A stretch of 64,000 bases of DNA, taken from Acidimicrobiia bacterium. GTDB lineage: Bacteria > Actinomycetota > Acidimicrobiia > Acidimicrobiales > Aldehydirespiratoraceae. The notes under the pieces were generated by a model. The model searched no databases. It had not been told where the DNA came from and saw nothing but the letters and a program-made list of their open reading frames with translations. Location: the NCBI GenBank assembly GCA_022819505.1, contig JAJEHD010000018.1, positions 627,663-691,662 of the forward strand, read 5' to 3'. The translations under genes were made by a program, and so were the position numbers. Of the stretch, positions 10,099 to 36,650 are shown one piece after another (within the stretch, counting starts at the first letter, position 1; every line of letters begins with the position of its first letter).

Positions 10099-10261
10099 GG
10101 CGCCTCCTGTGTGGGGTCTGTCTCGGGTTGGCGGCTGCGCCCCGGCCCGAGCCGATCTCCGATCACGCTCGATGCGCCCGCGTAGCCGGGGCGAGCATAG
10201 GGTTGTCGTCCGGTGAGCACCGCATCCTCCTCTCAGATTCCGGTGCGGGTCCGGTGACGCC

Positions 10262-11122: not shown

Positions 11123-11147
11123 TAATCGTGCGGGTGTGGAGGCCGGC

Positions 11148-13492
<2,345 letters not shown>

Positions 13493-13496
<4 letters not shown>

Positions 13497-13972: not shown

Positions 13973-14006
13973 TCGGACCTCGAGCGGCCCCGGCAAAGGG
14001 ACTGCC

Positions 14007-17219: not shown

Positions 17220-17247
17220 CTCCGCCTAGCCGCTGGGCTCCGACCGG

Positions 17248-17799: not shown

Positions 17800-19145
17800 C
17801 GAATGGACGCGGCCGGCTCGGCGACCGCCGTGAGCTCCATGCGGCGGCGCCACTCGGTGAGGAAGCCGCGGAGGGTGTGCTCGCTGCGGTCGGCGTCCTG
17901 CACATGGCCGGGCCACTCCAGGCCGTGAGCATCGGGATGGTGGGTGCCGGCCACATAGTTGTAGGACTGGTCGAGCCCGACCGGCCCGCTGTTGGCCTCG
18001 GCCATCCCGAGGAAGTTCTCGTTGTCGTCGAGTTCGAACATCCCGCCGGGGCCGTTGGTCCTGAGGTAGGCCCGCTGGGAACGCTCCTTCCATGTCTCGG
18101 AGGCGTCGGCCGGCACCAGGTGCCACCACCAGATCTCGGTCAAGCCCTCGTCGACAGGGACCTTGAGGGTGAGCCGGGTGTAGCGGCACATCGAGCCGGG
18201 TCCGTCGGTGGCGGTCTTGAAGTTCTCCAAGAAGGACAGGTTGGGGAACACGCTGCCGTGGGTGACCGAGGTGCGGGCCATGATGTCGACCTGGCCCGGT
18301 TTCAGGTTGCGCTCGATCTCACCCCAGAGCTCCTCCGGGTAGCCGAGGAACCCGGGCGGGTGGGTCTCGATGGGCAGGTGCTGGATCCGGATGGTGTGGC
18401 CGTTGCCGCACTGCACGGTGCGGCCGGGGAACTTCGGTCCGATGGGATCGCCGTAGGGGGCGACGTCCTCGGGGCTGGGGAAGAGCCCGAACCGCAGCGC
18501 GGTCTCGTGGGTGATCATGGTGTGGTAGCCGTCGCCGGAGAGGTTCTCGGTCTCGGCCTTCCAGTTGGCGCGGATGCGGGTCCGCACCGGCGAGCCCATG
18601 ACCTCGAACCCGTTGTCGAACTTCCCGAACAGCGCGTCGAAGTAGTAGGTCATGTGGCCCAGCGCGTCGCTGAGGGACGGGCCCCGGTGGTCCCATGTGG
18701 CGAAGATCAGCCCGTGCAGAGTCTCCACCCGGGCCGATCGGAGGTTGAACCGCGACTTGTCGAGGTCGGGGCCGTACACCTCCTTCTCGTAGGTCACGGC
18801 CCGGCATGCACCGTCGAGACCGTAGGCCCAGCCGTGGTAGGAGCATCTGTGGGCCTTGGTGTTGCCGCGGCCCGACCGGCAGAGCTTCACGCCCCGGTGC
18901 GAGCACGAGTTCAACATCACGTGGACACGGCCGTCGCGGTCGCGGTTCACGATTACCGGGTCGACGCCGAGGGGCCTGGTCACGTAGTCGCCCGGCTCGG
19001 GGATCTCGGAGACGTGTCCCACGAAGAACCATGACTTCTTGAAGATCGAGTCGAGCTCGCGGCGATGGATCTCGGGGTCGTGATAGATGCGCCGGCTGAC
19101 CCGGAACCCGCCGTCGGTGTCGATAAGTGCCATATCAGCTGCCAT
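17796..19145 (-). CDS. Rieske ring-hydroxylating dioxygenase alpha (large) subunit
   Basis: 449 aa. Rieske motif CSHRG...CSYHGW and mononuclear Fe motif DGYHTMITH (D-x2-H-x4-H). Confidence 0.9.
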   Translation of the reverse strand: MAADMALIDTDGGFRVSRRIYHDPEIHRRELDSIFKKSWFFVGHVSEIPEPGDYVTRPLGVDPVIVNRDRDGRVHVMLNSCSHRGVKLCRSGRGNTKAHRCSYHGWAYGLDGACRAVTYEKEVYGPDLDKSRFNLRSARVETLHGLIFATWDHRGPSLSDALGHMTYYFDALFGKFDNGFEVMGSPVRTRIRANWKAETENLSGDGYHTMITHETALRFGLFPSPEDVAPYGDPIGPKFPGRTVQCGNGHTIRIQHLPIETHPPGFLGYPEELWGEIERNLKPGQVDIMARTSVTHGSVFPNLSFLENFKTATDGPGSMCRYTRLTLKVPVDEGLTEIWWWHLVPADASETWKERSQRAYLRTNGPGGMFELDDNENFLGMAEANSGPVGLDQSYNYVAGTHHPDAHGLEWPGHVQDADRSEHTLRGFLTEWRRRMELTAVAEPAASIR

Positions 19146-19165
19146 TCGCCGGTTCTGTTTGCAAC

Positions 19166-20143
19166 TTAGTCCCGCATGATGCGCAGGGTCCCAATCTCGG
19201 GTGCGGGAATGCCCATTCCCCGCTCGTGGGCGGCCACCAGCAGCCGGTGGGCCAGGGCGAGGTCCTGCTCCACGGTGCCGATGGACTTGAACACCAGCGG
19301 CGCCTCGCCATCCGGCTCGTAGGGTGACTCGAGCCAGTCCCTCAACAGCAGGGCCCGGTCGGGGTCGAAGCCGAAGCGCTCGACCGCGTCGATGACGTCG
19401 CCCGGTTCGTGGCGGGCGTCCGCGCAGTCGAACACCACCTGCGAGGCTTCGGCGAAGACGTCACCGACCAGCTCCCGCTGATCGGGCCGGGTGGAGCCGA
19501 TGCCGGCCAAGAACTGGAGATGGTCGACCTGGCGGGCCTCGAGAAAGGCCGGGCCGAGAGATGACGTGGCGACATACAACTGCTGGGCGCCGGCCAGCGC
19601 GGCGTCGACCGAGTCCACCGGGTAGACGGGCACGCCCAGCACGGGGCCGTGCACCTCGCAGAACGCCTTCCGGTTGGCCGGCGTGGGACTGAACACGGCC
19701 ACCTCGGACAGGGTCGACACGGTGGCCACCGCCCGGAGTCCCTCCTTGGCCTCCTCGCCGCTGCCGATCACGGCCAGCTTCTTGGGCCGGCCGTCGTCGG
19801 CATGCTCGAAGGCCAGCGCGGCCGTCGAGGCGGTGCGGAGGCTGGTGATGCGGCGACCGTCGACGACCCCGATCATGTCGGCGGTGTCGCGGTCGAAGAC
19901 GCTGATGTGATAGCGCACCCGCCTGCCGACGCGGTGGAACTCCTTGTAGCCGACGATCCCGATCTCACCCAGGATGCCGGCCAGCACCCGCATCCAGGTG
20001 TGGCCGTCGCCGATCTGCACGCGTCCGGTCACGGCCTCGGCGCGGGCTGAGACCCGGGCCGCCTCCAACCCGACCTCCACCGAGGCCAACTTGTCGACGA
20101 GGTCGCCGTCGAGGAACAGGGGCGGATCACCCAGCGCGGTCAC
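19166..20143 (-). CDS. Ornithine cyclodeaminase / mu-crystallin-family NAD(P)-dependent enzyme
   Basis: 325 aa. ITSLRTASTAAL and VIGSGEEAK Rossmann segment. GTG start overlaps the upstream stop (GTGA). Confidence 0.75.
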   Translation of the reverse strand: MTALGDPPLFLDGDLVDKLASVEVGLEAARVSARAEAVTGRVQIGDGHTWMRVLAGILGEIGIVGYKEFHRVGRRVRYHISVFDRDTADMIGVVDGRRITSLRTASTAALAFEHADDGRPKKLAVIGSGEEAKEGLRAVATVSTLSEVAVFSPTPANRKAFCEVHGPVLGVPVYPVDSVDAALAGAQQLYVATSSLGPAFLEARQVDHLQFLAGIGSTRPDQRELVGDVFAEASQVVFDCADARHEPGDVIDAVERFGFDPDRALLLRDWLESPYEPDGEAPLVFKSIGTVEQDLALAHRLLVAAHERGMGIPAPEIGTLRIMRD

Positions 20144-21159
20144 TTCGGATTCCTGCCCACCCAGAACTCCTCGTCACCATCGTTGGTGACGTCGAGGCCG
20201 GCATCGACCGCGGCCTTGCGGATCATGCCCATCTGCGCCGCGTTGATGCGGGCCAGCGGTGCCCGGAGCGGCCCCCCGTTGAAGCCGACCAGCCAGCCCT
20301 GGTACTTCCAGATGCTCCGGGGCACCATCCCGGTGGTGGCCACGACGGGGCTGGCGGTGGCGCTGTTGGCCTTGCGGATGGGCGCGTTTCGCCAGTACAG
20401 GTCCATGCCGTCGTCCCAGGTGGCGGGATCGCTGAGCAGCTTGAGCATCTGGGGAACGCGGGGCCCGAAGGCCTCGTAGTTCGAGGTGCCCATGTACTTC
20501 ATGCCGTAGTGACGGATCCAGATCGGAGCGTTGTACTCCATGGGATCGGTCACGACGACCTGGTCGCCCAGGAGACGGAATACGTCGTCCATGCCTCCCG
20601 TGTAGGGCAGGCCGATCTCGTTCTTGATCCCCACCAGCATCGGACAGTCGGCCACCAGCCTCTCCAGCAGTCCCACCGGGAACGCGGCCGGGTGCAGTCG
20701 GGCGAAGTTCCACTGGTCGATCGCGAACAGCAGCACGCCCAGCGGCGAGCGGTCGATCATCGCCTTGCTGGCCTCGTAGAGCTCGTCGAGGGTGCGGGGG
20801 TAGAACGTCAGGGGGTAGGAGGGCAGCACCAGATCGGCCCCCAGCTCGGCGCCCCATTCGATGGTCAGCTGCTGTTCATCCCAGGTCGGCTGGGATGCCT
20901 GGACGACCACGACGAGGTCGCCGGCCGCGTCGGTGACGATCTCGAGCAGCCGCCGGTACTCCTCGAGCGCGGTGCCCCCCTCGCTGACGACCAGCACCGC
21001 TGCCATCCCGAGTTCCCGCTCCATCTCGACGTCGTGGCGGATGGCGACCTCGTTCAGCGTCGAGAGGTCGCTGGTGAAGGTGGGCAGGACGCAGCCGCAG
21101 CATCCCTTGAGATTCTCAAGAGCCCATGCCCGAGCCTCGGCTGCGGCGTACTCAGGCAT
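20140..21159 (-). CDS. DapA/DHDPS-family class I (Schiff-base) aldolase-like enzyme
   Basis: Frame of ORF 20140-21228. ATG 21159 is preceded by GGAGGG. VGIKNEIG contains the family's Schiff-base Lys position. Confidence 0.7.
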   Translation of the reverse strand: MPEYAAAEARAWALENLKGCCGCVLPTFTSDLSTLNEVAIRHDVEMERELGMAAVLVVSEGGTALEEYRRLLEIVTDAAGDLVVVVQASQPTWDEQQLTIEWGAELGADLVLPSYPLTFYPRTLDELYEASKAMIDRSPLGVLLFAIDQWNFARLHPAAFPVGLLERLVADCPMLVGIKNEIGLPYTGGMDDVFRLLGDQVVVTDPMEYNAPIWIRHYGMKYMGTSNYEAFGPRVPQMLKLLSDPATWDDGMDLYWRNAPIRKANSATASPVVATTGMVPRSIWKYQGWLVGFNGGPLRAPLARINAAQMGMIRKAAVDAGLDVTNDGDEEFWVGRNPK

Positions 21160-22102
21160 CCTGGATCCCTCCTGCCGGTTCGGCCGTCCGAGCAAGGAAT
21201 AGTCGCTCGGCATTGTGTCCGAGCACATTGGCTCGCTGCTCGTCGTTCAAGCCAAGTTCGTCCACGACGGCCAGGTGCCGCTGCACCGGCCACGGAATCG
21301 GCGGGCAGTCGGTGCCGAAGCAGATGTGCTCCGAGCCGACGGTCTCCAGGGCCATCCGCAGTGTCCGGCTCCCGAAGGTGACCGTGTCGAGGAAGAGCTT
21401 CTTGACGTGGCTCGACGGCGGCTCGGCCAGGTCCACCTCGCCCCATGGTCCCAGGGGGGCGTAGTTGCGCAGCTCGTGCCCGAAGTCGAGCCGATCGGCG
21501 ATGGTGGTGATGGCCCCGCCGGCGTGGGCGCAGAGCAGCCGGAGCTGCGGGAACTGCTCGTAGGTGCCGGTGAGGATGAAGCGGGCCAGCGTGACCGTCA
21601 TGTCCAGGGGGCGCCCGCACACCTCGCCCATGCGGTAGATGCCCATGAGGTCCTGGCCGACGGTCTGACCGCCGGGGTGCACGAAGATCGGTGCACCGAT
21701 GCTTGAGACGTAGTCCCAGAACCCGGCCGGGACACTGTCGAGATAGCAGTTCCGGTCGCTCGTGGGCAGAGCAAAGCCGGCCAGTCCGAGCTCTTCGGTG
21801 GCCCGCCGGGCCTCGTCGAGGTGCTCGGGGCCGCGCCAGGGGATCGCAGTGGCTAGACCGGCGAAGGTCCCCGGATGCTGGCGGGCCAGGTCTGCGACGA
21901 AGTCGTTGTAGGCGCGGACCTGCTCGATGTCGCCGGTGTCGAGGTCGCCGTACCAGATGTGAGGGTCGGAGACGATCGAGGTGGTGAGCCCGCCCTCCTC
22001 CATCCGTTCGAGCTGCCGGGGCACATCGAACAGATCGGGTGGCATGCGACCCTCCGGCTGCCATTGCGGAGGGAAGAGATGGACGTGACTGTCGACGATC
22101 AT
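21152..22102 (-). CDS. Amidohydrolase_2-family metal-dependent hydrolase/decarboxylase (ACMSD/IDCase-like)
   Basis: 316 aa. DSHVHLF (H-x-H), FVHPG, CAHAGG and FGTDCP are the metal-ligand pattern of the PF04909-type family. Confidence 0.8.
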   Translation of the reverse strand: MIVDSHVHLFPPQWQPEGRMPPDLFDVPRQLERMEEGGLTTSIVSDPHIWYGDLDTGDIEQVRAYNDFVADLARQHPGTFAGLATAIPWRGPEHLDEARRATEELGLAGFALPTSDRNCYLDSVPAGFWDYVSSIGAPIFVHPGGQTVGQDLMGIYRMGEVCGRPLDMTVTLARFILTGTYEQFPQLRLLCAHAGGAITTIADRLDFGHELRNYAPLGPWGEVDLAEPPSSHVKKLFLDTVTFGSRTLRMALETVGSEHICFGTDCPPIPWPVQRHLAVVDELGLNDEQRANVLGHNAERLFLARTAEPAGGIQDA

Positions 22103-22121: not shown

Positions 22122-24386
22122 TCATGCTCGCCTCGGGCGGTGCAGGGCGTGCCATAGGCGGGCCGAGCTCACCGAGCTGGTGAGCACCTCGGCCCCGTCA
22201 CCGACGGCGTCGGCTACGCCGTTGGCGACCGCGCCGAGTGAGCCGACCATCCCGGCTTCGCCGCCGCCCTTGATGCCGAGCGGGTTGGATCCGCTGCCGT
22301 GCTCGATGATGGTGACCTCCACGTCGGGCAGCTCGGCCGCGGTGGGCATCATGTAGTCGGCGAAGGTCACCGACAGCGGCTGGCCGTGCTCGTCATACGC
22401 GACCTCCTCGAACAGCGCTCCACCGATGCCCTGCGCGGCGGCGCCCGCCAGCTGGCCCCGGAGGAGCCGCGGGTTGACGGCTCGCCCCACGTCATGGGCC
22501 AGCGCGAACCGGTCCACCCGGGCCCTGCCGTCGGCCGGGTTCACCGACACCGAGCACACCGCCCCCCCGAAGGAGGCGGTCAGCCCCTCCTTCTCGAACC
22601 GGCCGCGGGTGGGACCGATGTCGCCGAGCCCAACCGATCGGTCGCCCGGCGCGGTCGCGGTGCCGTCGCGGAACTCGACGTCGCCGGGCCCGCATCCGAG
22701 GAGCGGCGCGGCCTTGGCTTTCATCTCGTCGACTGCAGCCGCGATGGCGTTCCCGGCCAGCACGGTGGAACGGCTGGCGAAGGACCCGAAGCCCTGCGGC
22801 ACCTCGGCAGTGTCATGGAACTCGACGGTCACGCCGCTGAGAGGCACGTCGAGAAGCTCGGCCGCGATCTGAGCCAGCGCCGTCTCGACGCCCTGGCCCA
22901 GCGATCCGACACCGGCCCGAACGACGACATTCCCCGCGCCACCGATCACCTCGACCTCTTCGAATGGTCCGACCGCGGCGAACTCGATGTAGGCCGCGAT
23001 GCCGACGCCGGCATGCTGTCCATCGGCTCGCGCCTGTCGCTGCTCGACCCGCATCCGGTCGTAGCCGGCCCCGTCGAGCATCTGATCGAAGGCCGTAACG
23101 AAGTCGCCGCCCTGGTACATGATCGGCATCACCGCCCCCGAACCGGGTCCCGGCATGAAGCTGAACGGCATCGACTCGGCCGGAATCAGGTTGCGGCGCC
23201 GCAGGTCGGCCGGCTCCATCTCCAGCTCGGCCGCGAGGATGTCGACCATGCGCTCGCGGACAAACGTGGCCTCGGTCATGCCCGGGCCGCGGTAGGTGCC
23301 GACCGGAGTGCGGTTCGTCAGCACCGCGTCTAGATCCATGCTGAACGCCGGCCACTCATACGGGCCGGGAAGGTGGACCATGGGGAGCACGACCGGCAGC
23401 AGGCCCTGGGTCCTGACGTAGGCGCCGTGATCGCACCATCCCCGTACCCGGAAACCCAGCATCCGGCCGTCGGCGCCGGCCGCCAGCTCGAAGTCGTGCT
23501 CCTGTTCCCGGGCATGGTTGGTGGCGACCATGTGCTCCCAGCGGTCCTCGATCCACTGGACGGGCCTCTCGAGGCGCCGGGCCAGCAGCGGGATGAGGAT
23601 GTCCTCGGGGTAGGGCTCGCCACGCGTCCCGAACCCGCCCCCCACTTCAACCTCGATGACGCGGACGTCGGTCAGCTCGAGCCCCAGCACGCGGCTCAGC
23701 AGGGCCCGGGTGAAGTGCTTGACCTTGGCGCCGCCCCACACCGTGAGCACCCCTGATCCGGGGTCGTAGTCAGCCGCCAGTCCGCGGGTCTCCATCGGCG
23801 CCGCGGCGAGGCGATGGACTCGCAACCGGCGGCGAACCACCACGTCGGCCCGCGCGAACGCCGCGTCGATGTCCCCGTAGCGGTAGGCGAGACGGCCGAT
23901 GGTGTTGCTTCCGAAGCTCTCGTGCACCAACGGCTGGGAGGACTCCGTCGAGTTGGCTGGATCGAGGACCGGCTCCAACTCGTCGAGATCGATGGAGACG
24001 AGTTCGGCCGCGTCCTCGGCCACATAGGGGTCATCGGCCACGACCACCGCGACCGGTTCGCCGACGTAGCGGACGACATCGGCGGCCAAGGGTGCCTGCA
24101 GCACCGCGTTGGCCTCGGGCGACTCGGCGAACGGGAGCCGGATCGGTATCCGGATGTCGTCGATGTCGTCGGCGGTGATGACCGCCACGACGCCACCGAC
24201 CCGGAGGGCCTCGGAAGTGTCGACGCCGAGCAGCCGGGCGTGGGCCGACGGGCTCCGCACCACCCGGGCGTACACCTGGCCCTCGAGCCGGATGTCGGCC
24301 ACGTAGGTTCCTTCGCCGGTGAGCAGCTCCCGGTTCTTGCGCCTGGGCGCGGGGCTGCCTATGAGTCCACCGCCGGGAGCGCTCAC
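22122..24386 (-). CDS. Xanthine-dehydrogenase-family molybdopterin-binding large subunit (L3)
   Basis: Frame of ORF 22122-24512. GTG 24386 overlaps the medium-subunit stop (GTGA). LLTGEGTYVADI, GTYRGPGM loop, GIKGGGEAG. Confidence 0.9.
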   Translation of the reverse strand: MSAPGGGLIGSPAPRRKNRELLTGEGTYVADIRLEGQVYARVVRSPSAHARLLGVDTSEALRVGGVVAVITADDIDDIRIPIRLPFAESPEANAVLQAPLAADVVRYVGEPVAVVVADDPYVAEDAAELVSIDLDELEPVLDPANSTESSQPLVHESFGSNTIGRLAYRYGDIDAAFARADVVVRRRLRVHRLAAAPMETRGLAADYDPGSGVLTVWGGAKVKHFTRALLSRVLGLELTDVRVIEVEVGGGFGTRGEPYPEDILIPLLARRLERPVQWIEDRWEHMVATNHAREQEHDFELAAGADGRMLGFRVRGWCDHGAYVRTQGLLPVVLPMVHLPGPYEWPAFSMDLDAVLTNRTPVGTYRGPGMTEATFVRERMVDILAAELEMEPADLRRRNLIPAESMPFSFMPGPGSGAVMPIMYQGGDFVTAFDQMLDGAGYDRMRVEQRQARADGQHAGVGIAAYIEFAAVGPFEEVEVIGGAGNVVVRAGVGSLGQGVETALAQIAAELLDVPLSGVTVEFHDTAEVPQGFGSFASRSTVLAGNAIAAAVDEMKAKAAPLLGCGPGDVEFRDGTATAPGDRSVGLGDIGPTRGRFEKEGLTASFGGAVCSVSVNPADGRARVDRFALAHDVGRAVNPRLLRGQLAGAAAQGIGGALFEEVAYDEHGQPLSVTFADYMMPTAAELPDVEVTIIEHGSGSNPLGIKGGGEAGMVGSLGAVANGVADAVGDGAEVLTSSVSSARLWHALHRPRRA

Positions 24387-25246
24387 GGGCCGGCTCCCAG
24401 TCTTCTCAAGGCGCGCTCGACCAGGTGCGATACGAGCGCTTTGCGATAGGTGCCGTCGGCGTGCCAGTCGCCGGCGTCCGGGTGGCAGGTCTCCGCGGCC
24501 AGCCGGGCGCACTCGACGATCGCGGTGTCGTCGAGGAACGAGCCCGACAGCGCCTGCTCGGCGTCACGGGCCCGTACCGGCGTCGGGCCGACGCTCCCGA
24601 GGGCGATCCTCACGTCGCGGGCCAATCCGTCGGTGGCCAGCCGGCACCCGGCGGCCACCGAGGCGTAGGCGAAGTCACCGACTCGGGGGCTGAACTCCTC
24701 GAACACCGACCGGAACCCCGTCCCCGGCGTAGGGAACCGGGCCTCGACCAGGACCTCGTCGGGATCGGCCGCTGTGGTCAGCGGGGCCAGGAAGAAGTCG
24801 CGGGCAGGCACCGTGCGGACACCCCGGAGGCTCCTGAGGACGATCTCCGCGTCGAATGCGGCGGCCACCACACCGAGTTCGCCGGCAGGGTCGGCATGGG
24901 ACAGGCTCCCGCCGAAGGTGCCTCTGACCCTTATCGGCAGGTGGCCAATGAGCGAGGCCGCCTCCCGGAGGGCTTGCCATCCGCCGCTGAGATCGGCCCG
25001 CTCGAGCGTCGCGTGCCGGACGAGCGCGCCGACGCACAGGCTGCCGTCCTGCTCTTCAAGGATGTCGAGCCCCTCAACCCCGCCGATGTCAATGAGGTGG
25101 CTGGGCCGGGCCAGCCTGAAGGCCAGCAACGGCAGCAGGCTCTGGCCGCCGGCCAGCAGCTTGGCGTCCTCTCCGGCCTCATCGAGAAGGGCGACGGCTT
25201 CGTCGAGCGTGCCAGCCGCCGCGTAGGCGAAAGGAGGAGGCTTCAC
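24383..25246 (-). CDS. Molybdenum-hydroxylase FAD-binding medium subunit (second set)
   Basis: Frame of ORF 24383-25423. GTG 25246 overlaps the small-subunit stop (GTGA). VKPPPFAYAAA...LLAGGQSLLPLLAFRLARP...RGTFGGSLSHADPAGE. Confidence 0.9.
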   Translation of the reverse strand: MKPPPFAYAAAGTLDEAVALLDEAGEDAKLLAGGQSLLPLLAFRLARPSHLIDIGGVEGLDILEEQDGSLCVGALVRHATLERADLSGGWQALREAASLIGHLPIRVRGTFGGSLSHADPAGELGVVAAAFDAEIVLRSLRGVRTVPARDFFLAPLTTAADPDEVLVEARFPTPGTGFRSVFEEFSPRVGDFAYASVAAGCRLATDGLARDVRIALGSVGPTPVRARDAEQALSGSFLDDTAIVECARLAAETCHPDAGDWHADGTYRKALVSHLVERALRRLGAGP

Positions 25247-25740
25247 GGGTCGTCCCGGTTCGCGGCCAGAGCGTTCAGAGCAGCTTGAAACACGGGCACC
25301 GCACCGGTGCAGCGGCACAGATTCGAGGAGACCACCTCCAGGATCCGGTCCCGTCCCGCCTCCGGTTCGGAGCGCAGCAGGCCCTCGATCAGCATGAGGA
25401 AACCGGGTGTGCAGAACCCACACTGCAGGGCGTCGTTGTCGTCGAAGGCCTGCTGCAGGGTGCTGAGTTCGTCGCCGTCAGTGAGGCTCTCGACCGTCTC
25501 TATGGTGTGGCCCTGCCCCTGGACGGCCAGCATCAGGCACGAGCGGACGGCGGCGCCGTCCAGCAGGATCGTGCAGGATCCGCACACGCCGTGCTCGCAG
25601 CCGAGGCGCACGCTGGTGAAGCCGGCGTCGCGCAGAGCGTCGGCCAGGGTCCGCCTGGGCGGGACGCGAACCTTCCGTGGCGCGCCGTTCACGGTCAGGG
25701 TGACGGCAACCGAATCATGGGGGTCGAGCCATCCAGCCAT
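25243..25740 (-). CDS. Molybdenum-hydroxylase [2Fe-2S] small subunit (second set)
   Basis: 165 aa. CEHGVCGSCTI and ALQCGFCTPG...CRCTG. Confidence 0.9.
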   Translation of the reverse strand: MAGWLDPHDSVAVTLTVNGAPRKVRVPPRRTLADALRDAGFTSVRLGCEHGVCGSCTILLDGAAVRSCLMLAVQGQGHTIETVESLTDGDELSTLQQAFDDNDALQCGFCTPGFLMLIEGLLRSEPEAGRDRILEVVSSNLCRCTGAVPVFQAALNALAANRDDP

Positions 25741-25747: not shown

Positions 25748-26755
25748 TCACGCCGAGACGGCAGCGCGGTCCGCGAGGTCTCGCAGGAGCTTCCGGTAGG
25801 CGATCGATCCGGAGTCGGCCAGCTTGAGGTGCAGCTCCTCGCGGGGGTCGAGGGGCAGCTCGGCCGGGTCCTGAGCCTCGACCACGATGCGGTCCTGCTC
25901 CATCACATCGTGGAAGCCGGCCCCGAAGTCGGCGTCGGAAGTGTCGAAGGAGTGGTTGCGCGACAGCCATGAGAAGATGCGGGTCTCGGCCCGGTCGGTG
26001 GGTGAGGCGATGAACGTGATGGTGGTGATGTCGCCGGCCTTCGACTCGCCCTGCTCGGACCAGGTCACGCCGCCGCTTACGGCCACGACCGACTTGCGGT
26101 CGTGCAGGGTGAAGGGCAGGTGCAGCGTGTAGTCCCGCAGCAGCACGCTGTCGTCATAGGCGTACCTCATACCGTCGTCGGTGACCGTGACCTCGAAGGG
26201 CTTGATGAACGCTCCGTCGGCCAGTTCGGTGAAGCCCTCGTGCACGAAGTTGAAGTGGGCGAAGTCGATGGCGTTCTCCAGCATCCGCCCCGCGGACGAC
26301 TGCCAGCGCCAGGTGCCTACCAGGAACACATGCCAGTCGTCGCTGTTCCAGTCGTCGTCGGGCCACGGGGGCAGATCGGCCACCGGTTCGTCGGGCGCGA
26401 CCCACACCGCACCGTGGTCCTCGCGTACGTGGTAGCGATGGACGCGGGCCTGGCTCGGGATGGCGCCGCCGGCTCCCAGTGCGGGGATGAACGCCACCTT
26501 GCCGGTGCGGTCGTACTGCCAGCCGTGGTAGGGGCACATCAGGCGCCCGTCGCGGATGCAACCCCCCGACAGCGCCACGCCCCGGTGCACGCACTTGTCC
26601 CGCAGCGCCACCAGTCCCTCGTCGTCGCGGTATAGCACGATGGCCTCGCCCAGCAGCCTCACCTGCATGGGCTCGGTTGTGACCTCTTCGGAGACCGCGA
26701 CCGGATGCCAGTAGTGCCTGAGCGCCTGTTCGAAGAGGTGTGCCTGGTCGAGCAT
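25748..26755 (-). CDS. Alpha-only Rieske non-heme-iron oxygenase (VanA/PobA/KshA-like monooxygenase or demethylase)
   Basis: Internal ATG 26755 of ORF 25748-27007 (MLDQAHLFEQALRHYWHPV). Rieske motif CVHRG...CPYHGW and Fe motif DFAHFNFVH. Confidence 0.85.
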   Translation of the reverse strand: MLDQAHLFEQALRHYWHPVAVSEEVTTEPMQVRLLGEAIVLYRDDEGLVALRDKCVHRGVALSGGCIRDGRLMCPYHGWQYDRTGKVAFIPALGAGGAIPSQARVHRYHVREDHGAVWVAPDEPVADLPPWPDDDWNSDDWHVFLVGTWRWQSSAGRMLENAIDFAHFNFVHEGFTELADGAFIKPFEVTVTDDGMRYAYDDSVLLRDYTLHLPFTLHDRKSVVAVSGGVTWSEQGESKAGDITTITFIASPTDRAETRIFSWLSRNHSFDTSDADFGAGFHDVMEQDRIVVEAQDPAELPLDPREELHLKLADSGSIAYRKLLRDLADRAAVSA

Positions 26756-26789: not shown

Positions 26790-27896
26790 TCAGGGCGCCT
26801 TGGACATGTCCACGATGGCGGCGACCATGCCACCGCCCGCGGGACCCTGCTGGAGGGCCGCCACCGAGCAGTACACGGCCGGATCCCCGATGGCGGCGGC
26901 CGCCACCGCACCGACCGCGCCCTTGGTGTGGTGGGTGTGGTGGATGTCGGAGTCGTTGATCGACACGAGCCGGCGACCCCGCAGCCGCCCCGACGGGTCG
27001 GTCTCACACTTGATGAAGCAGTTCACGACGGCATCCCCCAGGTCGCTGGGATGGGGTCGGTCGGGCAGGTCCAGCCCGGCCGAGCGGATGGCGTCGTAGA
27101 TCCCGTCGAAGTCGAGGGCGTCGCGCATGACCGAATGGCCGATGCGGAAGTCGCCGCCGGCGCCGGCCCTGTTGCCGACCACCACGATCTGGGCGGGGTC
27201 CTGCTCGACGCCCGACGAGCAGGACGCCACCGACGAGTACAGGTCGAGATCCGCGGCGATCTGCTCGGGGCGGGGAAGATCGAACTCGCCGACGGCATAC
27301 CCGATGCCGAGCGCGGCGGTGGCGTTGGACACCGCCATCGACTCCATAGTGTCGGTCATCACCACGTCCTTGCCCCGGCTGCGGGCGTCCTCGATGCGCT
27401 CCCGGGTCAGCAGCGGGGTCTTGGACTGCACGAAATGGACGTCGGCGGGGTCGGTGATGCCCGCGTCGGCCATCGCCACCCGCACGCCCTCGGCCACCTT
27501 CTCCACCATCGGCAGCCGGCCGATCTCCTCGGGCAGGATCGCCTCCGACATCGTCACGCCCACCGCCAGCCGCTTCTCGTCGCCGGCGCTGCCGTTACCC
27601 GGAACCCGGGCGAAGACATTCATGTGGGGCGCGATCACGCCGTCGGTGCCGCCGGACCACACGATGGGCATGCGGTCGATCTCCGACGGTGACCGGGTTC
27701 CGTGCGTGTTCAGGAAGTCACGGAAGACGCGGTCGGCCAGGATGCGGGAGAAGTCGTTGACCCCGCCGTTGCCCTCGGTCTTGCCGATCACGCCGATGAT
27801 CTGATCGGCGGTGAACGAGCCGGCCTCGATCTCGGCCAGCAGCCCGCCCATGTCGCTGACGAACTCGAAGGGGATCTTGCGTACAACGATGGGCAT
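26790..27896 (-). CDS. Ring-opening amidohydrolase of the cyanuric acid hydrolase (AtzD/TrzD) / barbiturase family
   Basis: 368 aa. Recalled family blocks are all present and in order: GKTEGNGGVND, VWSGGTDGVIAPH, HFVQSKTPLLT, SMAVSNATAALG, CFIKCETDPSG, NDSDIHHTHHTKGA, QQGPAGGG. Confidence 0.85.
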   Translation of the reverse strand: MPIVVRKIPFEFVSDMGGLLAEIEAGSFTADQIIGVIGKTEGNGGVNDFSRILADRVFRDFLNTHGTRSPSEIDRMPIVWSGGTDGVIAPHMNVFARVPGNGSAGDEKRLAVGVTMSEAILPEEIGRLPMVEKVAEGVRVAMADAGITDPADVHFVQSKTPLLTRERIEDARSRGKDVVMTDTMESMAVSNATAALGIGYAVGEFDLPRPEQIAADLDLYSSVASCSSGVEQDPAQIVVVGNRAGAGGDFRIGHSVMRDALDFDGIYDAIRSAGLDLPDRPHPSDLGDAVVNCFIKCETDPSGRLRGRRLVSINDSDIHHTHHTKGAVGAVAAAAIGDPAVYCSVAALQQGPAGGGMVAAIVDMSKAP

Positions 27897-28634
27897 CTAG
27901 CCGTCTCCTGTGTTGTGGTCGACTCCGAAGAAGAGCGACTGCAGCGCCGCGTCCTGCAGGACCTCCTGGCTCGACAGGGGCTCGCCCAGCACGCCGGCCT
28001 GCATCACGTAGACCCGATCGCAGTGGGGCAGGCAGACGAGCGGGCTCTCCTCGATCACCCACATGAGGGTCGTGCCCGAGTCACGGATACGCAGGATGTC
28101 GTCGATCCGCTCCCGCACGATGGAGGGAGCCAGTCCTGTGGTGGGCTCGTCCAGGGCCAGGAAGCGGGGGCCGGTGATCATGGCGCTGGCCAGTGCCAGC
28201 ATCTGGCGCTCGCCGCCCGACAGCGTGCTGGCGTTCTGTCCCATCCGGTCGCGCAGGGCGGGGTACGACTCGGCTACCTCGCCGACGCGCCGGCGGATCT
28301 CGACCGGGCTGGATCCCCGCAGCGCCACCGACAGGTTGTCGCGCACGCTCAAGTCGGGGAAGGTGTTGTTCTCCTGGGGCACGTAGCCCATGCCAAGCTC
28401 GGCCAGGCTGTGCGCGGGGTGGCGCCGGAGGTCGGCGCCCTCGAAACTGACGGTCCCGCCCGCGGTCGGCAGCAGGCGGAAGATCGTCTTCAGCAGCGTC
28501 GACTTGCCGGCACCGTTGGGCCCGACCACGGCGACGATCTCCCCGGCGGTCACCTCGAGGTCGACGCCGTGCAGCACCGGGAATCCGCCGTAGCCGGCCT
28601 CTAGAGCCTCGACGCGTAGGACAGCCTCGCTCAT
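27897..28634 (-). CDS. ABC transporter ATP-binding protein, LivF-like
   Basis: 245 aa. Walker A GPNGAGKST, signature LSGGERQ, Walker B FLALDEP. Confidence 0.9.
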   Translation of the reverse strand: MSEAVLRVEALEAGYGGFPVLHGVDLEVTAGEIVAVVGPNGAGKSTLLKTIFRLLPTAGGTVSFEGADLRRHPAHSLAELGMGYVPQENNTFPDLSVRDNLSVALRGSSPVEIRRRVGEVAESYPALRDRMGQNASTLSGGERQMLALASAMITGPRFLALDEPTTGLAPSIVRERIDDILRIRDSGTTLMWVIEESPLVCLPHCDRVYVMQAGVLGEPLSSQEVLQDAALQSLFFGVDHNTGDG

Positions 28635-29410
28635 GGGCTCCCGTCCTCTCCGCCGTCCTCGCCGAGGTACACCCGCATGACGTCGGGGTCGGCGGCGATC
28701 TCGGCGGGAGGCCCCGAGGCCAGCAGCGCGCCCCGATCGAGCACGTGCACCTCGTCGGCGATCTGCATGAGGAACGAGAGGTTGTGGTCGATGATCAGGC
28801 TGCCCAGCCCCCGCTCGTCGCAGAGGCGCCGCACGAGCTGCGACAGCCGTCCGATGTTGGCCGGAGCGACCGCGGCGGCCGGCTCGTCGAGCAGCAGCAT
28901 CTTGGGCTCGGCCATCAATGAGCGGGCGAACTCGAGAAGCTTGCGGTCACCGGCTGACAGCTCGTCGGTACGGACATCGAGCAGATCGGCCATGCCCAAC
29001 TCTGCGGTGATCTCCTCGGCACGGGCCCCGGACGCCCGCTCATGGTCCCGGGCTCTGCGGCTGAGTCCGAGAGCCCCGACCGGGGTCTCGACGAAGTGGG
29101 GGGTGGCCGCGGCGAGCATGCTCTCGCGCACGGTGAGAGTGGTGAACCCGACCGGGGTCTGGAAGGTCCTGATGAGCCCGAGCTCGGCCACCCGCCACGG
29201 CGGCAGCCCGTCGATGCGCTGATCGCCGAAGCTGATCGAGCCCCGATCCGGGGGGTCGAATCCGGTGATGGCGTTGAACAGGGTGGTCTTTCCGGCGCCG
29301 TTGGGCCCGATCAGCGCGGTGACCCTGTCCTGGGGCATCACCGCCGACACGTCGTCGACTGCGACCACGCCACCGAAGGTCTTGCGGACGGCGTCGAGCA
29401 CGAGGTCCAT
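28631..29410 (-). CDS. ABC transporter ATP-binding protein, LivG-like
   Basis: Internal ATG 29410 of ORF 28631-30313 (MDLVLDAVRKTFGG). GPNGAGKTT, LSAGDRK, LLLDEP. ATGA overlap with the downstream LivF-like start. Confidence 0.9.
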   Translation of the reverse strand: MDLVLDAVRKTFGGVVAVDDVSAVMPQDRVTALIGPNGAGKTTLFNAITGFDPPDRGSISFGDQRIDGLPPWRVAELGLIRTFQTPVGFTTLTVRESMLAAATPHFVETPVGALGLSRRARDHERASGARAEEITAELGMADLLDVRTDELSAGDRKLLEFARSLMAEPKMLLLDEPAAAVAPANIGRLSQLVRRLCDERGLGSLIIDHNLSFLMQIADEVHVLDRGALLASGPPAEIAADPDVMRVYLGEDGGEDGSP

Positions 29411-29418: not shown

Positions 29419-30411
29419 CTATCCGCCCGAGCCTTGTGCGGCTCCGGCTGGGCGCGAGTCTCCTGCGGACCGTCCGGCCGGGCGGTTGCCCGCCCCGAAG
29501 GCGCTCCGCTCCGAGAACAGTCCGTCCGGGCGGAAGCGCAGCACCAGCACCAGCAGCAGGCCCACCAGGAACGGCTCGATGGCGACCAGGATGTTGATAT
29601 GGGAGGGATCGACCTCGATGAGGCCCACCGCCTCGGTGAACACGATCAGGACGAAGGCTCCGGCGAGGCCTCCCCGGATGCTGCCCAGGCCCCCGATGAC
29701 CAGGGCGGTCCACACCGTGAACGTGATGCCCGGCGCGAACAGCTGCGGTGAGACGGCCCGGATGTAGAAGAGGTACACGGGGGCGGTGGCCCCGATGAGG
29801 ACTCCGGCCAGTATGAAGGTCTTGATCCTCATCCGGTTGACCCGCTTGCCCAGCGCGAGGGCGACCGCCTCGTTGTCGCGGGCGGCCCGGAGCGTCCGAC
29901 CGAACGGTGAGATCCCGATCTGGCGGGTGACGACATACATGACGGCCGCGGCCGCCACCGCGATGCCGAGCAGGACGTAGTTGTAGTCGCGGCCGGTGAC
30001 GAAGCTGTCGAAGGGGCGGTTGATGTTGGGCACCCCCAGTGTGCCCCGCGTCAGGTCGGCCTGGATGATCACCAACTGGCGGATGATCTCCGCGAAGGCC
30101 AGCGTGGTGATGAGGAAGTACTCGCGCCTCAATCGCAGCGCGGGCGCGCCAATGGCGAAGGCCACCAGACCGGTGAACAGCGCCGACAGCGGCCAGGCCA
30201 CCCACATCGAAAGCCCGGGCGCGAACCGCATGTCGAGATCCGGGTCGCCCGCGGTGAGGATGACGTAGCAGTAGCTGCCCGATGCCAGCAGCCCCGCGAT
30301 GCCCAGGTCCCACATCCCGCCCCAGCCGGACTCGACGTTGAGCGCCATGGCCAGGCTGGCGTAGATCGCGGCCAGCGTCAGCACGCCCACCCAGAAGATG
30401 GGATTGGTCAC
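29419..30411 (-). CDS. Branched-chain-amino-acid-type ABC permease, LivM-like
   Basis: 330 aa, multi-span hydrophobic. Positioned between the LivH-like and LivG-like genes. Confidence 0.85.
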   Translation of the reverse strand: MTNPIFWVGVLTLAAIYASLAMALNVESGWGGMWDLGIAGLLASGSYCYVILTAGDPDLDMRFAPGLSMWVAWPLSALFTGLVAFAIGAPALRLRREYFLITTLAFAEIIRQLVIIQADLTRGTLGVPNINRPFDSFVTGRDYNYVLLGIAVAAAAVMYVVTRQIGISPFGRTLRAARDNEAVALALGKRVNRMRIKTFILAGVLIGATAPVYLFYIRAVSPQLFAPGITFTVWTALVIGGLGSIRGGLAGAFVLIVFTEAVGLIEVDPSHINILVAIEPFLVGLLLVLVLRFRPDGLFSERSAFGAGNRPAGRSAGDSRPAGAAQGSGG

Positions 30412-30442: not shown

Positions 30443-31312
30443 TCATGCCACCACCGCGTCCTTGCGACGCTGGATCGACAGGATCCCCTCAGGCCTCAGT
30501 ATCAGCACCGCGACCAGCACCCCGAAGGCCACCACCGGCCGGTAGGCGGTGGGGATGAACAGCGCGGAGACGTCCATCATGATCCCCAGCAGCAGCCCGG
30601 CCAGGATCACGCCGGTGATGCTGCGCAGGCCTCCCAGAACCGCGGCGGCCAGCACGATCAGGATGTTGTGCCAGCCGATCTCGGTGTTGACCGCGCCGAG
30701 CACGCCGAGCATCACCCCGGCCATGGCCCCGAACGCCGAGCTGATGAACCAGATCGTGTTGGACACGGTGCGCACCGGCACGCCCCTGACCCGGGCCAGG
30801 TCGTCGTTGCTGGCCACGGCCCGGATGGCCCGGCCCAGTCCGGTGGAGTTGAGGAACAGCTGGAGCGCGGCGATGCTGCCGAACGCCAGCCCGATGATCA
30901 CGAGCTCGTTGGTGGCGATGCCGATGCCCGCAAAGCGATGGAGGCTGCCCGACACGTCGGGGTAGAAGCGGGCCTGCGTGCCGAACAGCGCCAGGATGGC
31001 GGCGTACATCATCAGCGCCAGCCCGATGGAGGTGAACAGCAGCACCGTGCCGCCCTGGTGGCGCACCGGCTGGAAGAAGATCGCGGACAGCACAACCCCC
31101 AGGGCGCCGAGCCCGACCACGGTGATGGCCCCGGCCAGGAAGATGTTCATGCCGTAGGTGTCCACCAGCACCACCCCGACGAACGCGCCCAGCGCCATCA
31201 TCTGGGCGTGGGCGATGTTGAGGAAGTTCTCGGTCTGGCGCACCAGCGCGAAGCCGAGGGTCGCCACGGCCAGGATGCTGCCGGTGACGATCCCGAAGAC
31301 GACGTTCTGCAC
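30443..31312 (-). CDS. Branched-chain-amino-acid-type ABC permease, LivH-like
   Basis: 289 aa, multi-span hydrophobic, with the typical LivH N-terminus (VFGIVTGSILAVATLG...NIAHAQMMALGAF). Confidence 0.85.
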   Translation of the reverse strand: MQNVVFGIVTGSILAVATLGFALVRQTENFLNIAHAQMMALGAFVGVVLVDTYGMNIFLAGAITVVGLGALGVVLSAIFFQPVRHQGGTVLLFTSIGLALMMYAAILALFGTQARFYPDVSGSLHRFAGIGIATNELVIIGLAFGSIAALQLFLNSTGLGRAIRAVASNDDLARVRGVPVRTVSNTIWFISSAFGAMAGVMLGVLGAVNTEIGWHNILIVLAAAVLGGLRSITGVILAGLLLGIMMDVSALFIPTAYRPVVAFGVLVAVLILRPEGILSIQRRKDAVVA

Positions 31313-31391: not shown

Positions 31392-32639
31392 CTAGGACGG
31401 CTTGACCAGCGTCGGGTCGAGCTCGATGTTCTCCCGGACGGCCCAGTCCCCGTCCTGCACGTGGATCACGGCCATCACTGGCGACAGCAGGTTGCCCACG
31501 CTGTTGAGGTTCAGGTTGGACGTGGTGCCGTGGTAGTCGATGTCGTTGCCGGCCTCGAGCTCGGCCAGGCCCTGGGCGTAGGAGAACACCTCGACGCCGG
31601 GCGGGTTGGCGATCTCCGGGATGGCGGCGGCCACTGCCGCTCCGTCGGTGGTGCCGGCCTTCGCCGTGGCCAGGCCCAGGATGATGTACTGGTCGTACTG
31701 CCAGGCGTCGTAGAAGGCGATCTCCGGCGGATCACCGATCTTCTCCTCGAACCTGGGCACGTAGGCGTCCCACGCCGGGTTGTTCACGGTGTCGTAGGCC
31801 GTTGCACCGACTATGGCGCTGGCCCCCGGCACGCCGCTCACGATCTCGGCGATCTCCGGGCTGAGAAGGTCGGTCGTGAAGATCATGGGAACGTCGGTGT
31901 AGCCCCGTCGCTGCCACTCGTTGAGGATCGGCACGCCCGTCTCGAAACCGGCCGCGATGTAGACGGCGTCGGGACCGGACTCGAAGGCCTGGGCCACCTG
32001 GGCCGCGTAGGTGGTCTCCCCGGCGTTGAAGCGGACATCCTCGGTGATGGTCCCACCCATCTGCTCGGTGAAGACGGCCTTGAACACATTGGCGGGACTC
32101 TCGGTGCCCTCGCTCAGCTCGACCAGCATGGCCACGTTGCGGTACCCCTCGTCGCGTGCCACCTGGGCGCCGACGATGCCGTTGTCGGTATCGGAGGGGA
32201 TGATGCGGAACACCATGTCACCACCGGTGCTGTCGAGTTCCGTCGTGCCGCAGGTGCTGCAGATCGTGGGGATCTGCAACTCGTGCACCGTGTCGAAGAT
32301 GGCGATCATCCCGTCGGACTCGATGCCGCCCAGGGCGTGGATTCCATCGACCTCGGTCAGCTCGGCGAAGCCCGACACCGCGCCCTCAGGCGTGGATCCG
32401 TTGTCCTCGACGACCAACTCGACGCTGCGCCCCAGCACGCCGCCGCCGGCATTGAGTTCCTCGACCGCCACTTCCGCCGCGGCCAGAGCCCAGTGGCCCC
32501 ACGGGCCGTAGTCCCCGGACTGTCCGTTGAGGAAGCCGTACTTGACGGGCCCCTCATCGGCAGCATCACCGCTATCACCGCTGCAAGCTGCGGCGGCCAC
32601 GAGGCCGACCGCGAGCAGCGCCACGAGTACGCGCTTCAC
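31392..32639 (-). CDS. Liv/amide-urea-type periplasmic-binding-protein-fold substrate-binding lipoprotein
   Basis: Frame of ORF 31392-32684. GTG 32639 is preceded by AAGGAG. Signal peptide plus lipobox VKRVLVALLAVGLVAAAACSG. Confidence 0.85.
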   Translation of the reverse strand: MKRVLVALLAVGLVAAAACSGDSGDAADEGPVKYGFLNGQSGDYGPWGHWALAAAEVAVEELNAGGGVLGRSVELVVEDNGSTPEGAVSGFAELTEVDGIHALGGIESDGMIAIFDTVHELQIPTICSTCGTTELDSTGGDMVFRIIPSDTDNGIVGAQVARDEGYRNVAMLVELSEGTESPANVFKAVFTEQMGGTITEDVRFNAGETTYAAQVAQAFESGPDAVYIAAGFETGVPILNEWQRRGYTDVPMIFTTDLLSPEIAEIVSGVPGASAIVGATAYDTVNNPAWDAYVPRFEEKIGDPPEIAFYDAWQYDQYIILGLATAKAGTTDGAAVAAAIPEIANPPGVEVFSYAQGLAELEAGNDIDYHGTTSNLNLNSVGNLLSPVMAVIHVQDGDWAVRENIELDPTLVKPS

Positions 32640-35681: not shown

Positions 35682-36650
35682 ATGAGCAACGCATTACGCC
35701 AGTACTGGCACCCGGTAGCGGCCGTCGAGGAGCTTGACGGCGGTCCGATCAAGACCACCCTCCTCGACGAGGACCTGGTCGTGTTCCGCTCCGGCGGCGA
35801 GATTCACGCCCTGCAGGACCTGTGCATCCACCGGGGCACGCCCCTGTCGCTCGGTTCGGTGAACGCCGACGGTTGCATCGTGTGCCCCTACCACGGCTGG
35901 ACCTACGACACCGACGGCAAGTGCGTCCACATCCCGTCGCAGCCGCCCGACCGCCAGCGGATCCCGTCGCAGGCGAGGGTGCCCGCCTACCGGACCTCGG
36001 AGCACTACGGGCTGGTCTATGTGGCGCTTGAGGATCCGGTCGCCCCGGTGCCGGAGTTCCCCGAGTTCTACGACGAGGGGTTCAACATGATCCGGCCGGG
36101 CGAGTGGACGTGGAATGCCAGCGCGGCCCGTTTCGTGGAGAACGCCATCGACACGTCGCACCTTCCGATCGTGCATCCGGGTCTGCTGGCCGATCCCTCG
36201 GCCACCGTCATCGCACCCTTCGACATGGAGGAGACCGACCGTGGCTACGCCTTCTCGGCCAGGCGCCACGATGTGGACGAGGCCATGTTCGGTGACGCCG
36301 ACGAGCTGGTCACCCAGAAGACGTGGGTGGAAATCCCCTTCAGCTGGCGCCTGCTGATTACCGCCGAGTCCCAGAGCACGGTGGTGTTCATCGCCAACCA
36401 GCCGATCTCCCTCAAGAAGGTCCGCTTCTGGGAGTTCGTCGGCATCAAGGGCAGCCAGGACCAGACCGACGACGAGATCATCGCCTTCCACCAGAAGGTC
36501 ATCGAGCAGGACCGCCACATAGTCGAGAACCAGCGACCCGAGATGCTGCCGCTGGACATCACCGCAGAACTGCATCTCAGAGTGGCCGACGAGCCCGCGC
36601 TCGAATACCGGCGCCGTCTCGCGGCGGTGGCCGGCGCCGAGTACGCCTGA
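35682..36650 (+). CDS. Alpha-only Rieske non-heme-iron oxygenase (VanA/PobA-like), paralogue of 25748-26755
   Basis: 322 aa. Rieske motif CIHRG...CPYHGW and Fe motif DTSHLPIVH. Confidence 0.85.
   Translation: MSNALRQYWHPVAAVEELDGGPIKTTLLDEDLVVFRSGGEIHALQDLCIHRGTPLSLGSVNADGCIVCPYHGWTYDTDGKCVHIPSQPPDRQRIPSQARVPAYRTSEHYGLVYVALEDPVAPVPEFPEFYDEGFNMIRPGEWTWNASAARFVENAIDTSHLPIVHPGLLADPSATVIAPFDMEETDRGYAFSARRHDVDEAMFGDADELVTQKTWVEIPFSWRLLITAESQSTVVFIANQPISLKKVRFWEFVGIKGSQDQTDDEIIAFHQKVIEQDRHIVENQRPEMLPLDITAELHLRVADEPALEYRRRLAAVAGAEYA

Follow-up and report, generated by a model that had tools for sequence, protein, structure and literature searches.

A barbiturase-clade ring-opening amidohydrolase beside a Liv-type importer in a sponge-associated Acidimicrobiales genome

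The closest described relatives of the gene considered here are the amidohydrolases of the AtzD/TrzD/barbiturase family, whose "Toblerone fold" has been proposed to originate from a concatenation of three YjgF units (PMC3758960). Cyanurate and barbiturate are the sole substrates established for it so far. The residue roles described for the family involve three Ser-Lys dyads, a universal Arg54 and a Glu beside the central dyad (PMC4051656, PMC3758960), and a structural metal site is formed by backbone carbonyls of the stretch A-x-x-Q-G-P-x-G-G-G plus Glu298 (PMC3758960). What distinguishes cyanuric acid hydrolases (CAHs) from barbiturases is the motif SGGxExQGPxGGGP together with arginines at positions 194/195 and 324/325 of AtzD (PMC9118981). 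At the five specificity positions (195, 321, 325, 345 and 346) CAHs have R-T-R-G-G, and the barbiturases of Group VI have N-H-K-V-S/A (PMC3758960). The family already holds a class without activity on either cyanurate or barbiturate (PMC3758960). Barbiturase (Bar) acts in the oxidative pyrimidine route, in which pyrimidines are converted to barbiturate, barbiturate is hydrolysed by Bar, and ureidomalonase then gives urea and malonate (PMC3758960); as far as the searchable literature shows, the pathway around the enzyme is still poorly defined genetically. We describe here a gene of this family, BarL, found in a stretch of 64,000 nucleotides from an Acidimicrobiia bacterium (assembly GCA_022819505.1, contig JAJEHD010000018.1, positions 627,663 to 691,662 of the forward strand), which as a whole is called the window below.

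BarL is an intact protein of the Toblerone-fold family, a relative of barbiturase and not a cyanuric acid hydrolase, and otherwise an ordinary member. Judging from its residues and its place in the tree, it probably works as a Ser-Lys amidohydrolase that opens rings, and its subclade, itself uncharacterised, is sister to that of the characterised barbiturases. The gene and its most discussed segment are:

26790..27896, minus strand: BarL, 368-aa cyclic amide (ring-opening) hydrolase of the barbiturase clade, subclade "NTKVA" (open reading frame, PF09663/TIGR02714, PDB, AlphaFold2 model, phylogeny)
26922..26942, minus strand: HHTHHTK segment, residues 319-325 (AtzD 319-325), with the specificity residue Thr321, the second-shell His322 and the active-site Lys325 (translation, mapping to AtzD and the Moorella CAH)

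The open reading frame (ORF) is real, with an ATG start, 368 aa and zero internal stops in the ORF and translation check. The PF09663 match takes in residues 5-363 of the 368 and has an E-value of 7.6e-131 (436.9 bits, where the cutoff is 25); TIGR02714 gave 455.8 bits (cutoff 153.1). Matches of this strength are far from what chance would produce. The top PDB match was the barbiturase 5hwe (450 bits), the CAHs reaching ca. 300 bits at most, and BarL is 60% identical to the Rhodococcus Bar over the full length and 42-47% identical to AtzD, TrzD and the Moorella CAH. The AlphaFold2 (AF2) model (pLDDT 86.2, pTM 0.90) had Foldseek TM scores of 0.94-0.96 to barbiturase structures and 0.87-0.93 to CAH structures. 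By profile, dyads, fold and metal loop alike, BarL belongs to the family as delimited by PF09663 and TIGR02714. A preliminary description of this DNA had called the family small, which it is not: there are more than 7,995 clusters (90% identity) at E<=1e-20 and 217 representatives (50% identity) at E<=1e-30.

The three dyads are intact in the alignment (K39/S81, K159/S227 and K296/S344, equivalent to AtzD S85/K42, S233/K162 and S344/K296), and R51 and E231 are also kept; together with the dyad residues they are invariant in the family alignment. The preliminary description was right that the dyads are complete, no catalytic Ser or Lys having been lost, and every family block that it quoted is present in the translation. 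It went wrong in placing serines of the dyads in VSNATA and NDSDI; the second-dyad Ser (S227) sits in SCSSGVE and the third-dyad Ser (S344) in YCSVAA. VSNATA and HHTHHTK are the sites of two of the three CAH active-site arginines, occupied in BarL by Asn and Lys. The elements of the C-terminal structural metal loop, AALQQGPAGGG plus FIKCE (E298), are present.

When compared to Bar from Rhodococcus erythropolis (EC 3.5.2.1; PDB 5hwe/5hxu/5hxz/5hy1; Group VI), BarL has in common the dyads, Arg54 and Glu237, the residues Asn195, Lys325, Val345 and Ser/Ala346, an Asp for the CAH Glu89, and the C-terminal QGPxGGG metal loop. Its specificity positions read N-T-K-V-A, four of the five (Asn195, Lys325, Val345, Ala346) being Bar residues. 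It is unlike Bar at Thr321 (His), His322 (Arg), Gln349 (His) and Ala196 (Gly), which define its subclade, and at Leu348 (Ala). The substitution of VSNATA for the YSRGAS of AtzD had been correctly aligned but wrongly taken for an oddity, as the Asn for Arg195, like the Lys for Arg325, is a signature published for barbiturases (PMC3758960). With the family members of Group V, which act on neither cyanurate nor barbiturate (Frankia 5hy0, A. caulinodans AZC_3203), the match was 187 bits and ca. 35% identity; they lack position 195, and BarL is clearly outside this group. The paper on the Frankia class V structure reportedly identified no substrate; the PDB deposit 5hy0 is titled "orotic acid hydrolase."

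Automatic annotation points elsewhere, to a CAH of the AtzD/TrzD type that would yield nitrogen from cyanurate. The NCBIfam equivalog NF052395 ("cyanuric acid amidohydrolase") scored 417.8 against BarL, above its cutoff of 360, the same label is given by JGI to several barbiturase-clade members, and Thr321 is the CAH residue. Besides Thr321, BarL has the fold, the dyads and the metal loop in common with AtzD, TrzD and the Moorella and Azorhizobium enzymes (EC 3.5.2.15). However, both CAH-defining arginines are changed (AtzD R194/195 to Asn191, R324/325 to Lys325), so that two of the three active-site arginines are replaced, Val stands for Gly345, and the CAH motif SGGxExQGPxGGGP is SVAALQQGPAGGGM in BarL (S-V-A-A-L-Q-Q-G-P-A-G-G-G-M), with four mismatches and without SGGxE. 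Moorella Glu351, which forms a salt bridge to the active-site Arg193, is Leu, and the bridge is missing. Neighbours belonging to a cyanurate pathway were not seen in the 64-kb window either, neither biuret nor allophanate hydrolase genes, which bears out the non-triazine context noticed earlier, and Bar itself is unreactive with cyanurate (PMC4051656). Public names in the clade are mixed ("ring-opening amidohydrolase," "barbiturase," "cyanuric acid amidohydrolase"). We regard the NF052395 cutoff as too permissive for the barbiturase clade, and since it lets BarL pass, metagenome surveys of cyanurate or triazine degradation potential could over-count.

Much of the interest of the preliminary description lay in the His segment, which it had correctly aligned to AtzD (DSDI-HHTHHTK-GA opposite DSDI-NSTRHAR-A). 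However, the start of this helix is His-rich across the barbiturase clade (HWHRQIK in Bar, HHHRHSK in another subtype) and is therefore not a peculiarity of BarL; what is truly distinctive are Thr321, His322, Gln349, and Ala196. Several of the features described as unusual are normal for barbiturases, and were overstated because the comparison had been made with AtzD only. HHTHHTK makes up the N-terminal turns of helix 316-336. In the Moorella CAH, Arg325 holds a Glu that positions the active-site Arg328 (PMC6557486); the BarL equivalents of these arginines are His322 and Lys325, while His320 corresponds to Moorella His323 at the tunnel mouth. Leu348 and Gln349 replace Moorella Glu351 and His352, in a mobile segment coupling the structural metal loop to substrate binding (PMC6557486). 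By homology, then, the segment would lie on the active-site/substrate-tunnel side, away from the structural metal loop; residues 311-319 are of low confidence in the AF2 model. The idea of a novel metal site is unsupported, as the cluster maps to the helix with the active-site Arg/Lys and to the tunnel mouth, and is His-rich clade-wide.

For the phylogeny, we aligned 80 genome loci, 120 close homologues, the full-length representatives of the exhaustive 50%-identity search and 4 PDB references (5hy0 and 4nq3 not among them). The tree is neighbour-joining only, with 114 dereplicated sequences and 100 bootstraps, and the locus sample is skewed to sponge Acidimicrobiia. BarL fell inside the barbiturase clade (N-x-K-V-x; 97% bootstrap) and outside every sequence with the RTRGG signature of CAH groups I-III, and so did not nest among ordinary CAHs, a possibility that had been raised before. 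Sequences of the BarL type (N-T-K-V-A; "SNATAA…HHTHHTK…ALQQGP"), called type-A from here on, form a subclade of their own with 100% bootstrap. Their sister group (90% bootstrap) is made up of Bar ("SNGGTA…HWHRQIK…AAHQGP") and a third type ("SNGTTA…HHHRHSK…DAMHQGP"; HHHRH type or type-C), and includes all the isolate sequences. All 168 type-A sequences have Thr at position 321, where all 35 Bar-type and HHHRH-type ones have His. Ten alignment positions cleanly divide type-A from the other two types, among them S50 (beside the active-site Arg), A192 (beside Asn195), T321, H322, and Q349. The type-A subclade is restricted in our sample to metagenome-assembled genomes (MAGs), which are the source of all 57 type-A loci among the species-representative genomes; the sole isolate among the 80 loci, Geodermatophilus telluris, has a Bar-type gene. 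In two cases (L012 with L072, L029 with L074) type-A and HHHRH-type paralogues were found in one MAG, on separate contigs, which argues against full redundancy. The sister of the whole barbiturase clade is a group whose signatures (STKGA, SIKAA, and others) are neither of the CAH nor of the Bar kind, and which we would guess to be Group V, in a tree without any Group V reference sequence. One MAG locus (L059) had two adjacent barbiturase-clade copies, NHKVD and NHKVA.

The genome loci closest to BarL (93-99%) are those of Acidimicrobiales MAGs, named Candidatus Aldehydirespirator or Acidimicrobiaceae, and the window belongs to a sponge-associated lineage of this order (Aldehydirespiratoraceae). 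Some of the close MAGs carry isolate labels SB06xx, which we take to be from a sponge study. The Aldehydirespiratoraceae include a sponge-symbiotic lineage (PMC11706023).

BarL directly follows a set of importer genes on the same strand:

31392..32639, minus strand: substrate-binding lipoprotein, Peripla_BP_6, 415 aa (Pfam; lipobox-like N-terminus)
30443..31312, minus strand: LivH-like permease, 289 aa (PF02653)
29419..30411, minus strand: LivM-like permease, 330 aa (PF02653 in the gene call of locus L001, coordinates checked)
28631..29410, minus strand: LivG/UrtD-like ATP-binding cassette (ABC) ATPase, 259 aa (Pfam/NCBIfam searches, gene calls)
27897..28634, minus strand: LivF/UrtE-like ABC ATPase, its TAG abutting the BarL ATG (Pfam ABC_tran; nearest NCBIfam model UrtE, below cutoff)

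The TAG of the LivF-like ATPase gene (27897-27899) is followed without a gap by the ATG of BarL (27896), reading …AGGAGACGGC TAG ATG…, with AGGAG 9 nt upstream of this ATG. The abutting codons were already pointed out in the preliminary description, and indeed tie the gene to the importer; from this TAGATG arrangement, BarL is predicted to be translationally coupled to the Liv-type ABC importer. A 560-aa ORF at 28631-30313 was considered as a LivM-LivG fusion and discarded, as the gene calls of a near-identical contig give separate LivM (330 aa) and LivG (259 aa) genes in different frames.

Around the importer and BarL lie genes for oxygenases and for molybdenum (Mo) hydroxylases:

25748..26755, minus strand: Rieske non-haem iron oxygenase, NdmA/SxtT-like, 335 aa (Rieske and VanA_C domains; NdmA, SxtT, SxtDIOX and NdmB at 103-134 bits)
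35682..36650, plus strand: second Rieske oxygenase, NdmA/SxtT-like, 322 aa (Pfam Rieske/VanA_C; PDB NdmA/NdmB/SxtT/SxtDIOX at 113-150 bits)
36692..37951, plus strand: AndAc-like Rieske oxygenase alpha subunit, 419 aa (NCBIfam AndAc 467 bits, below the cutoff of 750)
22122..25740, minus strand: Mo-hydroxylase set (a), downstream of BarL, with CoxS-like (25243-25740), CoxM-like (24383-25246) and CoxL-like (22122-24386) genes (Pfam)
10217..16298, plus strand: Mo-hydroxylase set (b), with CoxM (10217-11122), CoxL1 (11094-13496), CoxS (ca. 13508-13972) and CoxL2 (ca. 13980-16298) genes (Pfam; CoxS by tblastn)
16302..22102, minus strand: variable block with an ACMSD/LigW-like decarboxylase, a 339-aa hypothetical protein, an OCD-like reductase, Rieske dioxygenase alpha and beta subunits and an extradiol dioxygenase (Pfam, NCBIfam, PDB)

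The order on the minus strand is therefore Peripla_BP_6 lipoprotein, LivH, LivM, LivG, LivF, BarL, Rieske/VanA_C oxygenase, CoxS, CoxM and CoxL of set (a), and beyond these, on the same strand, the decarboxylase, the hypothetical protein, the reductase, the dioxygenase subunits and the extradiol dioxygenase of the variable block. The first Rieske gene starts 34 nt past the BarL stop, with its own ribosome-binding site. The second lies ca. 3 kb upstream of the importer operon, in divergent orientation and past four genes (PNPOx-like, alpha/beta hydrolase, a 132-aa hypothetical and a luciferase-like monooxygenase); it is kept at 80-96% in all close relatives, and the AndAc-like subunit at 71-95%. 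The closest solved relatives of both VanA_C-type proteins include the methylxanthine N1/N3-demethylases NdmA and NdmB, as well as SxtT. As in the Ndm system, there are two Rieske paralogues in one locus. However, the matches are at ca. 103-150 bits, no NdmD-type reductase was found in the BarL locus, and Ndm systems supply xanthine to the urate pathway, which has no Toblerone-fold enzyme. In set (b) the large subunit is encoded twice, by full-length paralogues of 800 and 823 aa (stop-to-stop ORFs) that flank the gene for the 2Fe-2S subunit. Ahead of the set are genes for a cupin (9152-9679) and for RidA (9706-10284, minus strand), and relatives keep this arrangement. Searches of the hydroxylase subunits and of the 339-aa hypothetical protein against NCBIfam and PDB gave no substrate-level assignment, and no curated NCBIfam model for a uracil dehydrogenase matched the CoxSML-type hydroxylases. 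The variable block is probably a separate aromatic or N-heteroaromatic module. We considered a thymine to iso-orotate to uracil conversion (Rieske methyl oxidation followed by an Amidohydro_2 decarboxylase) and discarded it, as the decarboxylase is nearer to LigW/ACMSD than to IDCase, all weakly, and is located in this block.

The order (Rieske genes) <> substrate-binding protein-LivHMGF-BarL is invariant in all 17 relatives with 86-99% BarL identity, their importer proteins being 75-99% identical, and the downstream Rieske gene follows BarL in 15 of the 17. What varies are the flanks. In L009, L010 and L016-18 the b-type hydroxylase (68-90% identity to the window copy) is directly beside BarL-Rieske, while in the window and in L004, L007, L008, L012 and L077 an extra 9.4-kb block (16302-25740), reaching from set (a) to the extradiol dioxygenase, stands between the two. 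The block is absent from the former five, so that close relatives differ by an entire catabolic module, inserted or deleted. The Mo hydroxylase of set (a) is found in the closest relatives only, and was rejected as a conserved BarL partner; it is the b-type set (10217-16298) that is found beside type-A genes across lineages and phyla, orthologues with 55-60% identity occurring in other Acidimicrobiia and in Burkholderiales and Verrucomicrobiales MAGs. After dereplication at 85%, a CoxL-like gene no more than 10 kb away was present in 9 of the 13 type-A lineages (Acidimicrobiia, Burkholderiales, Verrucomicrobiales) vs. 4 of 15 Bar-type or HHHRH-type lineages. Other neighbours at type-A loci are Liv-type ABC, CMD, OYE, amidase and RidA genes, and a 53% orthologue of the binding protein is found again beside the type-A BarL of a Verrucomicrobiales MAG (L041).

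We consider it likely that BarL cleaves the ring in an operon for the oxidative catabolism of a pyrimidine-like compound, for which we infer the order of the steps and the substrate as follows. A pyrimidine-like N-heterocycle would be taken up by the Liv-type ABC importer and oxidised by a CoxSML-type molybdenum hydroxylase and, in this lineage, it may also be hydroxylated or N-demethylated by the NdmA-like Rieske oxygenases. The product would be a 2,4,6-trioxo-pyrimidine (barbiturate-type) ring, whose hydrolytic opening by BarL would give a ureidomalonate-type product for other hydrolases. The linkage to a Mo hydroxylase is what the barbiturate route predicts, and the kept Asn/Lys/Val/Ala pocket favours a barbiturate-type ring.

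Several observations weigh against this proposal. BarL has the CAH residue Thr321 where the Bar signature has His321, and His322 where Bar and CAHs alike keep an Arg. For the binding protein, PDB gave weak matches to Liv-type binding proteins, and neither PDB nor NCBIfam gave a substrate-level assignment; the matches of the Rieske proteins to NdmA are at ca. 134-145 bits, so that function is not transferable, and neither a Rieske reductase, nor a nucleobase permease, nor a recognisable ureidomalonate-processing gene was identified in the operon. Among the close relatives, four are without a Mo hydroxylase within 10 kb, and an NdmA-like Rieske gene was found in only 2 of the 13 type-A lineages.

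As to the physiological substrate, it may well be plain barbiturate or 5-methylbarbiturate; an N- or C5-substituted barbiturate is a reasonable but less favoured candidate, and something else altogether seems rather improbable. The changes at 321/322, at the tunnel mouth and in the mobile loop, the co-occurrence of paralogues and the distinct operon favour some shift in specificity. Tentatively, one could go further and see in the N-T-K-V-A subclade a seventh functional class of the family, with an N-methylated or C5-substituted barbiturate or a close trioxo-heterocycle as its substrate, closing an undescribed pathway of sponge Aldehydirespiratoraceae. An imported methylated pyrimidine- or xanthine-type alkaloid would be demethylated or hydroxylated by the two NdmA-like Rieske oxygenases, then oxidised by the Mo hydroxylase with two large subunits, and its ring would be cleaved by BarL. 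If this were true, these loci would also yield candidate genes for the uracil/thymine dehydrogenase step, which is poorly defined.

An alternative that we find unlikely is that the subclade has left barbiturate chemistry and opens some other cyclic amide, imide or ureide (an orotate-, hydantoin- or alloxan-like ring, or a fused heterocycle) in an unrelated pathway, the Mo hydroxylase and Rieske genes acting on that other scaffold. In its favour, S50, A192, T321 and H322, of the ten dividing positions, are at or next to published active-site residues and Q349 is in the mobile loop that couples metal and substrate; type-A and type-C paralogues are found together in single MAGs; the gene contexts of Bar-type and type-A loci differ; and the family does contain a class inactive on both known substrates (PMC3758960). 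However, the asymmetric Asn195/Lys325/Val345/Ala346 pocket, tied in the literature to the C5 carbon of barbiturate (PMC3758960), is fully kept, the 60% identity to Bar comes with a TM of 0.95, and the presence of the Mo hydroxylase fits the barbiturate route. It is still less probable that the locus is a mosaic catabolic island with incidental linkage, in which BarL, as a housekeeping barbiturase, would serve the turnover of the cell's own uracil or thymine and would not act on the cargo of the importer. The variable flanks (the 9.4-kb block present or absent, the Mo-hydroxylase sets differing between relatives) and the unrelated neighbours of more distant type-A loci would agree with this, but not the TAGATG coupling of BarL to livF, the gene order invariant in 17 relatives, or the binding-protein orthologue again beside BarL in Verrucomicrobiales. 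That BarL is a cyanuric acid hydrolase is rejected, with residues, motif and phylogeny all against it, and we give this next to no credence.

Should BarL turn out to be a plain barbiturase, the finding would be routine, one more family member in a catabolic island. Still, the locus brings to light a large subclade of barbiturase-like proteins in which one published specificity residue is switched and which, among the 80 sampled loci, lacks any cultured representative, and the several further changes next to the active site, together with the linkage to importer, oxygenase and hydroxylase genes, provide a handle on a possible third specificity and on candidate oxidising genes. We found nothing later than the structural papers in the literature on uracil dehydrogenase genes, ureidomalonase genes or the type-A subclade.

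The Bar-type (His321) loci L067 (Geodermatophilus telluris; 5086-6357, 12458-14110, 13899-15611) and L003 (GCA_030447625; 14778-21000) present a different picture from the BarL operon with its Liv-type importer and NdmA-like Rieske genes. Common to both are a carbamate-kinase-like gene directly upstream of Bar, FdrA/AllF-, AllG- and AllH-like genes, a xanthine/uracil (Xan_ur) nucleobase permease, and CoxM/CoxS. This gene set suggests that ureidomalonate might be cleaved phosphorolytically, by a transcarbamylase plus carbamate kinase, and the two loci offer gene candidates for the "ureidomalonase" and uracil dehydrogenase steps.

Some minor features of these loci are also worth recording. In the window, the minus-strand stretches 38458-40236 and 43505-44731 take in a CADD/PqqC-like "iron-containing redox enzyme" (PF14518) and an alpha/beta hydrolase, both kept with the BarL cluster in relatives at 62-98%, and, further along, a cytochrome P450; there is also a CMD-family gene at 41677-42252. 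A CMD-family (PF02627) gene is immediately downstream of the type-A BarL in 28 Acidimicrobiales loci (70-74% identity; e.g., L037, ca. 11100-11679), and its product could act on the ring-opened product. Finally, a 437-aa protein with three tandem RidA/YjgF (PF01042) domains is encoded divergently upstream of the type-A BarL in L038 (8509-9822, minus strand) and in 14 other sponge Acidimicrobiales loci; given the origin proposed for the Toblerone fold from three YjgF units (PMC3758960), this triple-RidA neighbour may merit structural comparison.

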